In this document: positions 36,714 to 55,621 of the stretch, one piece after another
Position numbering within the stretch: the first letter of the stretch is position 1
How the letters are laid out: each line of letters begins with the position of its first letter
From: Nitrospirales bacterium
GTDB taxonomy: Bacteria; Nitrospirota; Nitrospiria; Nitrospirales; UBA8639
Direction of reading: 5' to 3'
NCBI GenBank assembly: GCA_963555755.3
Contig: OY820905.2
Location: 2,368,001-2,432,000, forward strand
DNA length: 64,000 nucleotides
Program-made: the position numbers and the translations under genes
Notes under the pieces: model-generated
Databases searched by the model: none
Told to the model about the DNA's origin: nothing
The model's input: the letters and a program-made list of their open reading frames with translations, nothing else

Positions 36714-37164
36714 AAGCTTGCTTTACATTTTGCTTGCTTGCTTTTAACATTCAAAAATACATGTGTCAATAAAAAATTTAAAGAAAGTATCTATTAAATT
36801 AACACATCTTTTGAGTTTCATTAAAAATTATATCAGAATATCTATGCAAGCACCAAAATAAGTTTGTATTTTTTCTGAGCATATAGATAAATTTTAATAC
36901 TTGCTAGAATTAATACTTGAAAGCCAATATTTAGTAGTCTGAAGAAAATGGATACTATTAGTTTGATGTAAATTTTTCCATCCTCACCCTTTTTTTGGGT
37001 TAATTCTAGAATGGTCTGTTGGAGTAATCGCCTTTGTATATAATGTAGGGTTAAGATTTTGCGTTTCCTTGTTGGGGCTGTTGAATATTTCGCGTCAATT
37101 GCCAATAAAAGCTCTGGATGAGCCAAGCATTGTCAAGGGGAGGGAATGTTCAAAAAAGCATGCC

Positions 37165-38380
37165 CTTGTATAATGCAAGGAAGGGTTGTAGGCCAACTCA
37201 CCCGAGCTGCCTCTTGTCTGAAGAGGGCATAGCCAACGTAGGGAAAAGGCTGTACCCTCACGGTATTGTGAATCCTGGCATGATAGACCGTTTGCCCTAT
37301 GGGAATCAGCCCGTGACTCAGCGCAGGTCGTCATGCCCTTTCTCTGATGAACCCGAACGGTTGCCTGGGACACCAAGCCCGTATCAACAAGGTTGGGAGA
37401 CAGAGCGATGAAATCAAAATCCTCAGAATTGTTTATCGGTATCGACATTTGTAAAGCTCGATTAGACGTGGCAGACAATGCCAATTCGCTTCCATGGTCG
37501 GTAGCCAACAACGACGCCGGCATCGCCGCGCTGGTGGAGCGGCTCCACGTCCTTCACCCCACTCTCATCGTGATGGAAGCCACAGGGGGGCTGGAAACGC
37601 TTCTGTATGCGGCCTTAACCACCGCCGGGTTGCCGGCGGTCGTCATGAATCCCCGTCAGGTGCGGGACTTTGCCAAGGCCCTGGGCACCCTGGCCAAAAC
37701 CGATGCCCTGGACGCCCGAATCTTGGCTCGCTTCGGGGCGGCGATCCAGCCGGCGGTCCGGCCCATGAAAGACGCCACCACCCAGGAATTGACGGCCTTG
37801 GTGACACGGCGACGGCAGTTGCTTGCCATGCAGACGGCGGAAAAAACCCGCCTCCAGCAAGCAGCCAAATGGATCCGCAAAGATATCAACGCTCATATCG
37901 CCTCCCTGGAAAAACGGCTCCAAACAATCGAAGGTCATATTGCCGAGATTATTAAACAGACCCCCGGCTGGAAAGAGAAAGATTCGCTCCTTCGAAGTGT
38001 GCCGGGGGTGGGCAACGTCTTGTCAATGAATCTCCTCAGTAGCCTGACCGAACTCGGGACGCTCAACCGAAGAGAAATCGCCACGCTGGTGGGCGTTGCC
38101 CCCTTAAACCGCGACAGCGGAAACGTGCGCGGCAACCGAAGGGTCTGGGGAGGCCGGGCCCAAGTCCGCGCCGCCCTCTACATGGCGGCCCTGTCCGCAT
38201 CACGATTTAATCCGGTCATCAAAACATTTTATCAACGCCTGATTGCACAAGGGAAAAAACCCAAAGTGGCCCTCACCGCCTGTATGCGAAAACTTCTGGT
38301 CATTCTGAATACGATGGTCAAAACCCAAACAGCATGGAACCCAAATCAATATTCAACCCTTGACTTTAATCACGGTTGCT
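37165..38380 (+). mobile_element. IS110-family element 1 (IS621-like, CT core)
   Basis: CATGCC-CT-[element]-CT-GAGTC; empty sites at 39701 and 10957. Confidence 0.93.
37180..37406 (+). ncRNA. Predicted bridge RNA of IS110 element 1
   Basis: Guides TGCCCT (37293), GACTCAG (37315), ACGGTTGC (37357), ACAAG (37387) match target and donor; ends approximate. Confidence 0.85.
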
Positions 38381-38382
38381 GA
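37408..38382 (+). CDS. IS110 family DEDD recombinase, apparently intact
   Basis: [38 protein letters not shown]. Confidence 0.95.
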
Positions 38383-38537
38383 GTCTTTCCGAAGGGTCTA
38401 TCCAGCAAGGCCGCAGCCATTTTGACGCGCGGAGCGTACTCATAGTACGTGAGCACGGCAAAAGGGCGAGAACGCCGCTGGCGGCTTTTTTCAACATTCC
38501 CTTGTTGAAAAACACATAGCTATAGTAAGTTCATCCC

Positions 38538-39602
38538 ATGACCGCCTTTCAATCTCTACCAATTATTGAGCCTTCTGGTCTGAATTTATTGGCCCTGAGC
38601 TTTCATGAAACATCGGCTTTGGTCGAGAAATTGAAGTGGCCAGCCTTCAGAACCCAACAGATTCTACAGTGGCTCTACCAACACCGGGCTAGAAAAATCG
38701 ATTCGATGAGTAGTCTTTCCAAGACAGATCGTGAATGTCTGCAATCCATCGCGACTATTGGTCGAGCGCCAGCCCCGACTGTCGTGTGTTCTCAAGATGG
38801 AACGCGCAAGCTCTTGTGTTCTTTGGAAAACGGGCTCCAAATTGAAAGCGTTCTGATCCCCGAGGAGCCGCGGTTGACGTTGTGTATTTCGACCCAAGTG
38901 GGCTGTACAGTTGATTGCCGATTTTGCTTGACCGGCCAAATGGGGTTAAAGCGCAATTTGAAGGCTCATGAAATCGTGGAGCAAGTGATGACCGCTCAAG
39001 ACCTTCTTCCTGAAAGTGAACGGATCACCTCACTGGTGTTTATGGGTATGGGTGAACCCCTAGCGAATATCGAGTCTGTCACGGAATCCGTCGCGCGACT
39101 CACCAATACCCGATGGGGACTTGGCATCCCTGCCCGGCGCATTACCATCTCCACCGCCGGCCTCGCACCACGACTAAAAAATATTGCCGGGTTAGGGGTC
39201 AATCTGGCCATTTCCCTCAATGCCACGACCAATGAACAACGAGATTACTTGATGCCGATGGTCAACAAGCTTCACCCGTTGCCAGAACTATTGGAAGCCT
39301 GCCGAACCTACCCATTAGGTCCCGGGCGGCTCCTGACGTTTGAATATGTCCTCTTAAGCGGAGAGAACGATTCGCCCGAAGACGCCAAACGACTGATTCA
39401 CCTGCTTAGAGGCATTCGGTGTAAAATCAATCTTATCCCGTTTAACGAATTCCCCGGCAGCTCGTTTCGCCGTCCGTCAGATGAGGCGATAGAGAAATTT
39501 CAATCTATCTTGAGACACAGTCGGTATGATGTCTTTCTAAGAAAAAGCCGCGGGCGGGATATCTTGGGAGCTTGCGGCCAACTTGGGAACATCCCTCCAT
39601 GA
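38538..39602 (+). CDS. rlmN: Dual-specificity RNA methyltransferase RlmN
   Basis: CISTQVGCTVDCRFC, FMGMGEPLAN, GACGQL. Confidence 0.95.
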   Translation: MTAFQSLPIIEPSGLNLLALSFHETSALVEKLKWPAFRTQQILQWLYQHRARKIDSMSSLSKTDRECLQSIATIGRAPAPTVVCSQDGTRKLLCSLENGLQIESVLIPEEPRLTLCISTQVGCTVDCRFCLTGQMGLKRNLKAHEIVEQVMTAQDLLPESERITSLVFMGMGEPLANIESVTESVARLTNTRWGLGIPARRITISTAGLAPRLKNIAGLGVNLAISLNATTNEQRDYLMPMVNKLHPLPELLEACRTYPLGPGRLLTFEYVLLSGENDSPEDAKRLIHLLRGIRCKINLIPFNEFPGSSFRRPSDEAIEKFQSILRHSRYDVFLRKSRGRDILGACGQLGNIPP

Positions 39603-39683
39603 AGTTATGCTAGGAGCGCTTGTTGAATATTTCATTCCAATAGCCAGTCAAAGCTCCATATGAGCTAAAGATCATCAAATGGA

Positions 39684-53283: not shown

Positions 53284-53927
53284 TTCGACATTATCCGTGA
53301 ACATCCAGGGTCGGTCAAGATAGGAACGTGATGGGTAAGGCGTGAGGCGAAAAGAAAGATGGGTTACAGGGTACGCCCTACGAGTCACATCTTTCGCTTC
53401 ACGCTTCACGCATTATGCTTTACGTCTTACAGGTGCATCTATAAAAAAACAGTTGAATAATTCAAATATTTGTGAGTTTTCCAGGGACGGTCTAACCGCC
53501 TCAATTGTCAGAAGGAAAGGGGTTGTTCAAAAAGGCCCATTGTCTGACCCGCCCAACCCAGGCGCGCTAAGACGCGCCCTTCCACAGGCAAGGCCGCAGG
53601 GGCTCCCGGCCTTCGTAGCCACTTCGGCGGAGTAGGCTTGGCGCGCGGAGCGTAGGTGAGTACGTGAGCACGACAAAGGGGATCAATCCCAATTTTGGTG
53701 GAGTAAGGCGAAACCCTCTTACACTCCGCCCGTATCACCCCTCGTCCATTGTCATTTTGACCCTTGGGAGAACTCTCCCCCATTCCCGCCCGGGTCACGT
53801 TCTTTCGGGCCAAGAGATTTCTCCCAAGGGTCGAAATAATGGTATGGACTCCCCCTTTGAGGACGGCATCAAATGTGCCAAGCTGGAAGACTAACCAACC
53901 AGCACTCAACACAAAGGAGGAGTCAGC

Positions 53928-54950
53928 ATGAACGGTACCACGATTGGCGTTGACATTGCGAAGAACGTATTTGAGATCTACGTGGAAGACGAAGCGGGGC
54001 AGGTGGTGGAACGCCGCCGCCTGTCTCGGAAGAAGATGTTGCCCTGGTTTGCGAATCGTCCCCGCGCGGTGGTGGGAATGGAAGCCTGTGGGGGCGCCCA
54101 TTATTGGGCCCGCGAATGAGAAAAGCTCGGCCATGAGGTGCGGCTGATTGCTCCGCAGTATGTGAAGCCGTGGGTGCAGACCAACAAAAGTGATTCGGTG
54201 GATGCCCGAGCCATCTGTCGTGCGGTGCGCGAACCCGGGATGCGGTTTGTCGCGATTGCCAGCGAAGCCCAGCAAGCGGTCCAGGCCTTTCATCGAGTCC
54301 GCAGCCGGTTGATGGGCAATCGGACCGCGCTGGTGAATCAGATCCGTGGGATCTTGTTGGAATATGGGGTCGCTATCCCCAAGGGCGTGGCCTCGGTCCG
54401 CAAGGCATTCCCCCTGCTTCTGGCCGAAGAACGGTGGGCGCCGCTGGTCCGGCAATTCTTGGTGGAGCAACAAGCGGAGCTGCTGAATTGGGATGCCCGG
54501 ATTGAGGAAGTCACCAACCACATCAAGCAGGAGAGTGCCACTCAGCCGGTGTGTCAGCGACTGGAGCAGGTGCGCGGGATTGGCCCGCTGTCGGCCTCGG
54601 CCCTGTGGCTCAAAGCAGCGGGGCAGCCGTATCAGAATGGGCGACACGTAGCGGCCGCCCTCGGCCTGGTGCCCAAGCATACCGGGACGGGGGGCAAGAT
54701 TCGGTTAGGGGGGATCAGTAAACGCGGGGACCGGTATCTCCGGCGATTGCTGATTCATGGGGCCCGGGCCGTGATCAGGCAGGTGGGCGAGAAACCGGAT
54801 CGGCTGAGTGGCTGGCTCCGGGAGCTCGTGGCCCGGCGCGGCATAAATAAAGCGGTGGTGGCGCTCGCGAATAAGAATGCCCGCGTGGCCTTCGCCATCA
54901 TGCATGGAGACCAGCCATATGATGTGACGAAAATGTGTCAGGCGTCATAA
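53928..54950 (+). pseudogene. IS1111-type recombinase with in-frame TGA at 54117
   Basis: GVDIAK, GMEACGGAHYWARE*..KSDSVDA, TGG, LLIHGARA in one frame. Confidence 0.9.
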
Positions 54951-54959
54951 GACGGAGGA

Positions 54960-55180
54960 AGATCTTTCCAAGGATTGCGTAGCAGGAAATCCCAACTGAT
55001 GGGCGAAAGCGGTCACCCCCGCGGGAGCAAACCCTGAGTTCTGTCATCGGCTGAGTCATCAAGCCGGCGAAATGCATAGGAGCTTCCGCGCGAAAACCAT
55101 CAAGGCTCGGAACACAGAAGGTTCCATGACGAAGCCGGATATATGACAGCAGACCCGCTCCTTATCAGATGGTAATCCCG
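54960..55180 (+). ncRNA. Predicted seek/bridge RNA of element 3
   Basis: TTCTGTCAT (55039) and CGAAATG (55068) match the target; ACCAT (55096) and ATATAT (55139) match the donor junction; ends approximate. Confidence 0.8.
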
Positions 55181-55621
55181 CTTGCAAAACAGGGGGAGTC
55201 CATATATGACAGAAGGAAGCCTTCTCGTTGTTCATCCAACCAGACTTGCTCCTTACCACTTCCGCCTCTTGTCATTTCGACCCTTGGGAGAAATCTCGCC
55301 ATTCCTGCCACGCCTGAGCAGGCTGTTCCCCCCTCAACACGGTCCCCATGACCTGCGGCGGGCCATGGAATAGGTCCCAATTCCACCAAAATGGCAACTG
55401 GTCCGACAAAGGCCCAAGAACGCCGCTGGCCTGCCTGCCATAGCCTTGGCGAAGGCTGGCGGACTTTTTCAACAACCCCTAAATTTCTTGACACAACTGA
55501 GGACCCTGTGATACCTCTCAAGTCTCACCATCCGTCTCGGGGCATGAGCATTTCGCCCTTTGTCAGAATCAACAAGTTCGCGGCTGCACATTCCTTGGAG
55601 AGGAATTATTAAGGAGTACGA

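Follow-up and report, generated by a model that had tools for sequence, protein, structure and literature searches.

Three IS110-family elements within 18 kb of a Nitrospirales chromosome, each in a repeat matched by its predicted bridge RNA

The window analysed here is a stretch of 64,000 nucleotides from the chromosome of a Nitrospirales bacterium (positions 2368001-2432000 of contig C1; genome of 4.62 Mb in two contigs), and within 18 kb of it lie three elements of the IS110 family, which we call A, B1 and C. [quoted passage not shown] Mobile DNA is very abundant in this genome; 260 of the called genes (a rough in-house set) lie mostly within repeats, and 20-mers occurring at least five times account for 12% of the chromosomal sequence and for 22% of its non-coding part. 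It is likely that the guides of the lineages drifted separately, each toward a match with one of the abundant non-coding repeats in which this genome is rich.

The first-pass annotation had proposed three divergent IS110 systems with cores CT, CT and AT and with the RNA upstream, upstream and downstream of the gene, all of which was borne out. The three recombinase genes each match PF01548 (DEDD RuvC-like) and PF02371, and their products are 21-25% identical in pairwise comparison; A and C score above the cut-off of NF033542, and the truncated frame of B1 reaches 124 vs 140 bits. As is characteristic of the family, the elements are flanked by a duplicated short core (A, CT at 37165-66/38379-80; B1, CT at 48625-26/47126-27 on the minus strand; C, AT at 53836-37/55206-07) and empty target sites exist. 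The long non-coding end lies upstream in A and B1 and downstream in C. A and B display the traits of the IS110 group, i.e. a Ser-Gly motif and a long left end that carries the RNA, while long sub-terminal repeats are absent, and C displays those of the IS1111 group, i.e. sub-terminal inverted repeats, a long right end with the RNA and a Ser/Thr-Gly motif. A is homologous to ISCro4 (E 1e-37) and IS621 (E 2e-35). When the ends of A, B1 or C are joined in silico, -35 and -10 hexamers come to lie at a spacing of about 17-18 bp, as in a putative junction promoter; circle junctions were absent among the joints recorded in the read-run contigs, and Rfam gave zero matches within window positions 36000-57000. 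The recombinase gene is intact in A, frameshifted in B1 and interrupted by TGA at codon 64 in C. Contigs of the sequencing runs X1 and X2 span both defects with 0 differences, although the best of these runs is possibly the source sample itself.

The genome-wide profile search gave 23 matches to PF02371 and 21 to PF01548, which fall into six lineages, A to F. Lineage A comprises 13 loci and a short remnant, B three elements and a remnant, C one element and a remnant, D three identical copies, and E two broken elements together with a non-autonomous piece. Lineage F consists of two fragments, the remnant in the window being one of them.

The census of A copies against the repeat family, which had been suggested as a check, placed 13/13 loci at one site in MITE C. 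The junctions are identical, at one position of one repeat (left 12/12, right 12/12), and 73/73 of the empty sites defined by a 13-mer lie inside MITE C, compared to a chance expectation of 0.14. Occupancy of the A site is 13/86, and the target 14-mers are found outside called genes in 72/72 cases. The genes are open in 11/11 complete A copies, which have a median identity of 99.2%, whereas the MITE pieces beside seven long-form A copies reach a median identity of only 68% and the nearest relative of a filled MITE is an empty copy in 6/7 cases. Hence, A inserted repeatedly into old MITE copies, and we regard it as the recently active element of the three. In the congener G006 the site corresponding to A of the window contains neither MITE nor IS, and in G011 a 91%-identical relative of A occupies the same module position. 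Long-form MITE C carries a target duplication of 5 bp, which is exact in 38/55 testable empty copies. The long form is distinguished by 65 bp of additional sequence on its left, closed by a second terminal repeat; the short form mostly occurs without duplication. A transposase or autonomous partner of MITE C was looked for and not identified, and A insertions showed no bias toward the GC-skew maximum (P 0.59). The A target had been described earlier as a repetitive extragenic palindromic (REP) hairpin carried in MITE C. Its location in a module of MITE C stands, but this module folds like shuffled sequences (z 0.02; B1 target z -2.6, C target z -5.4). The more general claim that each system sits in its own multicopy element is retained for MITE C, family E and family F, with the hairpin character of the A target as its weak part.

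B1 has two relatives elsewhere in the genome, B2 (C1:3599336-3600834) and B3 (C1:3743127-3744626), both with open genes of 407 amino acids. The three are 76-84% identical and have a common donor junction and different target guides, B1 being inserted in the family E tail, B2 in a module within MITE C and B3 in a free hairpin module. The latter belongs to the module family of A and is entered at a different CT a few bases away. Hence, B is not bound to a fixed repeat position, as three copies use three targets. Judging from the sequences, one B protein could serve three guides, and B1 is a broken copy that could probably be mobilised in trans by the intact B2 or B3 proteins. The tail of family E had been named as the target of the B system, and it is indeed interrupted by B1, with 8/11 of the 11-mers matching the B1 target found in family E; however, only a minority variant of the tail is concerned (9 empty 12-mer sites vs 135 family E loci). 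Hairpin modules of 20-35 bp recur as optional inserts in MITE C and family E (e.g. 53600-53640 and 55430-55460) and look like tiny mobile units; A, B2 and B3 all target such modules.

Element C is present in a single copy. It was correctly assigned to the family F arm, being located at the end of the family F palindrome, for which 125 empty 12-mer sites were counted (occupancy 1 of about 126). Right of the core, the same three bases of the palindrome end were found in all 26 C-lineage loci with sequence there. The targets of this lineage are palindrome ends regardless of the host, and by eye they resemble the CGTC-tagged REPs of Di Nocera 2013 (PMC3733652). The Thr in place of the catalytic Ser was considered as a novelty and rejected, since it is a known IS1111 variant (PMC11187229).

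The match between guides and targets was evaluated across relatives, with guide positions taken from covarying sites. For lineage C, 54 loci were examined, 37 of them with a right end and 27 with both ends and parsable guides. The left guide matches the four bases left of the core at 106/108 positions (shuffled mean 69.3, 0/10000). Among 8 distinct guide-target pairs the match is 30/32 (shuffled 17.5, 2/10000), and at the two variable positions of the right side it is 33/46 (shuffled 19.4, 0/10000). Six elements of lineage B gave 64/72 (shuffled 32.5, 21/10000), and in the consensus fold of their six left ends the two guides share an internal loop, arranged around a stem that shows compensatory changes. 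Guide changes also track the targets, by eye, in the A relatives of G002, G006, G008 and G054. The donor guides were matched by eye and computationally, and the donors are nearly invariant. This is the same covariation pattern that is used in the literature to identify guides, and the predicted target guides match and covary with their targets as expected for IS110 elements. The earlier suggestion that guide RNAs have been retargeted onto repeats gains from these data, because guide segments change together with the flanking target across relatives. Automatic best-match guides (A left target, C left target and some donor guides) fell on wrong segments and were replaced by the covarying positions. 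Contigs of the RNA run X9 cover A, although such contigs are uninformative on expression. The features of the window are listed in Table 1.

Table 1. Positions of the IS110-family elements, their predicted RNAs and their host repeats in the window
Feature	Position	Strand	Remarks
Left part of long-form MITE C hosting A	37075..37164	+	5-bp duplication around whole MITE (~37069-37073, 38502-38506)
Element A, intact, IS110 group (IS621/ISCro4-like)	37165..38380	+	1216 bp; CT core on either side
Predicted bridge RNA of A	37180..37400	+	Covariation in relatives
Predicted target guides of A	~37290-37298, 37315-37321	+	First and last guide of A placed by eye
Predicted donor guides of A	~37357-37364, 37385-37391	+
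Recombinase gene of A	37408..38382	+	324 amino acids; DEDD and Ser-Gly residues align to ISCro4
Right part of MITE C hosting A	38381..38501	+
Empty sibling MITE C	39619..39838	+	A target unbroken, core 39707-39708
Second empty A site	core at 10963
Family E repeat copy	46932..47125	+	Tail interrupted by B1
Element B1, IS110 group	47126..48626	-	Core CT; the genome has three B copies, diverged from one another
Recombinase gene of B1	47159..48384	-	Frameshifted near 48316, past codon 23
Predicted bridge RNA of B1	48400..48570	-	Target guides 48531-48539, 48506-48512; donor guides 48457-48465, 48435-48441
Remnant of fourth IS110 lineage	50466..50660	+	Left end and ~35 codons, cut off beside family E copy
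Family F palindrome	53751..53835	+	C inserted at stem base; last bases of repeat resume at 55208
Element C, IS1111 group	53836..55207	+	Sub-terminal inverted repeats; core AT; single genomic copy
Recombinase gene of C	53928..54950	+	340 codons; codon 64 (54117-54119) is an in-frame TGA; Ser-Gly motif position taken by Thr-Gly
Predicted bridge/seek RNA of C	54985..55170	+	Right-target guide 55041-55047; left ~55068-55073 (placed by eye)

Two further lineages outside the window show the same habit. The three intact D elements (C1:193097-194638, 563.3 kb and 2045.1 kb; 374 amino acids) possess sub-terminal repeats and a predicted right-end RNA, and all are situated at the tip of a MITE of ~165 bp (3/3 at the same position), for which 126 empty 12-mers were found (occupancy 3 of about 129). 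The E elements (C1:385798-387292, 70.5 kb and 725.9 kb) are located at the end of an element which we take to be IS91-like. There are 27 empty ends or sites of this type, 9 of which lie 312-330 bp from a transposase of this kind. The targets are unevenly abundant: the share of non-coding positions whose 12-mer is at least as frequent as the target is 1.4% for C, 1.4% for D and 4.7% for A, and 11% for E, 18% for B1, 20% for B2 and 62% for B3. Moreover, a possible fourth remnant that had been noticed at 50559 turned out to be the left end of a fourth IS110 lineage. In a DNA search it matches the left ends of multi-copy elements in 8/150 relatives; two of these encode IS110 proteins of 339 amino acids and a third one of 338, and their right end is long. 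The peptide of the remnant had no matches in Pfam, NCBIfam or plasmid tblastn.

By analogy with work on IS621-type elements, each element would form a circle, the joined ends would make a promoter, the RNA would pair with target and donor, and the recombinase would insert the element at the core. Guides that hit repeats may then persist as their sites are many and harmless, and the target differences between lineages would be a by-product of separate histories, without competition. Several points weigh against this explanation. The exact target of B3 is rare (1 empty 12-mer), the left guide of A matches just 7/9 target bases, and the left flank of the remnant is single-copy. The shuffle counts given above overstate the significance, since related sequences are not independent, and single-sequence folds of the three predicted RNAs do not differ significantly from shuffles (z -0.6, 0.7 and -1.8). 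Selection for harmless sites is our inference, and RNA and activity are sequence-based predictions in all three systems. Finally, 5-7% of random placements bring three lineages together somewhere within 18 kb, but only about 0.1% do so for four lineages, which separate drift of guides leaves unexplained.

The stop codon of C deserves separate consideration, because UGA 64 might be a conserved recoding signal, kept over two genera and 15% DNA divergence, with low-level readthrough throttling the recombinase and C not dead. We consider this doubtful. Three copies in G162, a genome of another genus, share this TGA at codon 64 (L037, L057 and L062, each at a different target site), and the carriers of the stop, only L036, L037, L057 and L062 (C and the three G162 copies), form a clade in a 42-row DNA tree with support 99/98. 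Between C and one G162 copy, the pairwise ratio of non-synonymous to synonymous substitutions (dN/dS) is 0.08 for the part preceding the stop and 0.11 for the part following it (dS 0.6-0.9), similar to the range of intact pairs (0.09-0.22). Recoding would be set in a context of purifying selection on both sides of the stop, at least four transposed sites and >100 identical targets in the genomes. However, an intact protein with 89% identity (P0003) falls within the same clade in a quick, unfinished protein tree, the derived residues are nearly evenly common to the three pairs (6, 4 and 6), and one relative has TTA at codon 64, a single change from the stop. Furthermore, the G162 copies are decayed, and an intact sibling could move them in trans. 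Two independent nonsense changes are more likely than recoding, and element C is most likely dead. If true, recoding would add an extra control layer on an RNA-guided recombinase; a literature search on readthrough in IS transposases turned up no case for the IS110 family.

It had also been claimed that the recombinases partition the repeat families among themselves. In a competitive form of this reading, co-resident lineages would have been selected onto different repeats and would now constitute a mutually orthogonal set. Seven elements examined indeed have seven different 14-base targets, and between lineages the guides match foreign targets at 0-8/16, although the scores on own targets are inflated by best-match choice. 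Cores differ as well (CT, CT, AT, GA and AG), as do the recombinases of A, B1 and C with their low protein identity, so that orthogonality is plausible from the sequences. Nevertheless, partition by competition appears unlikely. B2 uses MITE C like A, B3 is found in the module family of A, and an A relative in the congener G002 sits in family E. The separation is one by site and not one recombinase per repeat family, because the three copies of B use three repeats, one of them inside the MITE of A. The sites are not limiting either: judging from the occupancies of A (13/86), C (1 of about 126) and D (3 of about 129) they are far from saturated, hence competition is needless. In P. putida, ISPpu9 and ISPpu10 use one REP site in common (PMC1525189), and the whole lineage of C targets palindrome ends whatever the host. 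Co-residence occurs in relatives, too, with B- and C-type elements in G153 and C-type elements with two different guides in G162. The related view that the guides are tuned to repeats as safe harbours is thus kept in part, as the A sites lie outside called genes and retargeting is evident, but without strict partition. Likewise, a ready set of three orthogonal enzymes cannot be upheld, because two of the three genes are broken and only A is intact.

A third claim concerned genome rearrangement, for which many identical targets could let the recombinases invert, delete or amplify segments. A precedent exists, since ISPpu10 bounds amplifications of >100 kb in P. putida (10.64898/2026.03.19.712850), and the A copy at C1:3222492 is the one candidate for a rearrangement linked to A, as its left half belongs to one MITE subtype and its right half to another, without duplication. 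This copy could have arisen by recombination or by internal deletion; its flanks were not placeable in three congeners. However, matching duplications are kept by 8/12 testable A-filled MITEs (7/7 long-form and 1 short-form), so that no exchange took place across these cores; the remaining four A copies that have a left junction are the C1:3222492 copy, one that has lost its right end and two with truncated left MITE ends. Window positions 36000-55990 are collinear in the congener G003, except for an island at 46-51 kb that is missing there. The synteny comparison with G003 covered 2.4 of about 4.0 Mb (1162 orthologues, 55 breaks in 1117 intervals). Four IS110 sites were testable; 3 are collinear, and 1, which belongs to A, falls in a 15-kb gap where synteny breaks. 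The break rate is 3/35 for intervals with empty A sites, compared to 18/347 in the background at gaps of 300-1500 bp; the corresponding rates are 11/137 for MITE C, 7/42 for empty C sites, 9/48 for empty D sites, 7/26 for family E and 7/38 for other IS genes, and background breaks rise with the gap, to 15/89 at 1.5-5 kb. Synteny therefore gives no clear excess of breaks at IS110 targets, in a comparison that is weak (partial genome, few sites). With little support from duplications and collinearity, a role of the three systems as engines of rearrangement is quite improbable.

Finally, A might have entered MITE C once and spread with the MITE transposase, without repeated guided insertion; all A copies occupy a single position of one MITE subtype, and a separate 5-bp duplication belongs to the MITE, but this is very improbable and largely refuted by the near-identity of the A copies next to diverged flanks that group with empty copies, and by the 91%-identical relative in G011 at the identical module position.

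Apart from these questions, the surroundings of the elements contain further features. Four of the six IS110 lineages are found within 18 kb (37165-55207) beside core genes, presumably ATP synthase subunits, a pab-like and a nadB-like gene. Two genes built of 18-bp repeats (34558-34715 and 35652-35809, minus strand) encode histone-like proteins rich in Lys and Ala, and next to each gene there is a family H repeat. An ORF6N-domain gene (PF10543; 46360-46887) is enclosed by two direct family E copies, like the cargo of a composite unit, and a lower-GC gene of 408 amino acids with a weak GDSL/SGNH match (48753-49979, minus strand) lies between B1 and the remnant.

Much of the general background has been established in the literature. 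Bridge RNAs, their positions in the two IS110 groups and REP targeting are described (PMC11208160), as are the Ser/Thr motif and natural guide re-direction (PMC11187229). Several IS110 elements have every copy in a REP, and ISPpu9 and ISPpu10 use a common site within one genome (PMC1525189; 10.1101/2025.01.17.633520); large amplifications and a target stem-loop are treated in 10.64898/2026.03.19.712850. A junction promoter at the joined ends is known for IS621 and ISPpu10, half-match recombination and cargo growth are described in two preprints, and it has been reported that different cores remove crosstalk, naturally orthogonal bridge recombinases being named as a need (10.64898/2026.04.29.721476). 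Our literature search found no paper on this set, on a repeat-family partition among co-resident IS110 lineages or on IS110 readthrough, and target tables in supplements or ISfinder may hold similar cases. The mechanism and the repeat-homing habit are already published, and the anatomy described here is real. The readings as strict partition, as three usable enzymes and as a rearrangement engine are weakened. Nevertheless, the genome represents a dense natural data set, with five IS110 lineages, readable targets and four different cores; lineage B combines three guides with one donor on the same chromosome, and intact A, B3 and D together with an intact C-lineage relative are reasonable candidates for orthogonality.

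Among known systems, IS4321 and IS5075 reportedly target the Tn21 inverted repeats, and other IS1111 elements are said to target attC. Lineages D and E resemble them as IS110 elements aimed at the ends of mobile elements, with different target elements. A and B share the layout of IS621 and ISCro4, i.e. core CT, predicted left-end bridge RNA, two guide loops, putative junction promoter and insertion in repeats (Durrant 2024, PMC11208160). In contrast to these, the A target is a poorly folding module in a MITE with its own 5-bp duplication and not a free REP, and B belongs to a subgroup with 407 amino acids and has three differently programmed copies in this one genome. C agrees with the IS1111 elements ISEc11/ISXne4, ISPa11 and ISKpn4 in its sub-terminal inverted repeats, predicted downstream RNA and Thr-Gly variant (Siddiquee 2024, PMC11187229); it differs from them in a lineage consistently found at palindrome ends (CGTC-tagged-REP-like, by eye) and in an in-frame stop recurring in another genus. 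The type 1 REP association of Tobes and Pareja, in which all copies are at one repeat position, is seen in A (12/12 junctions on each side) and D (3/3) and not in B, and C is single-copy. A further parallel is P. putida KT2440, where every copy of the two IS110 elements ISPpu9 and ISPpu10 is at a fixed position in an intergenic repeat. There, however, the two have one REP site in common, whereas here five lineages use five kinds of site.

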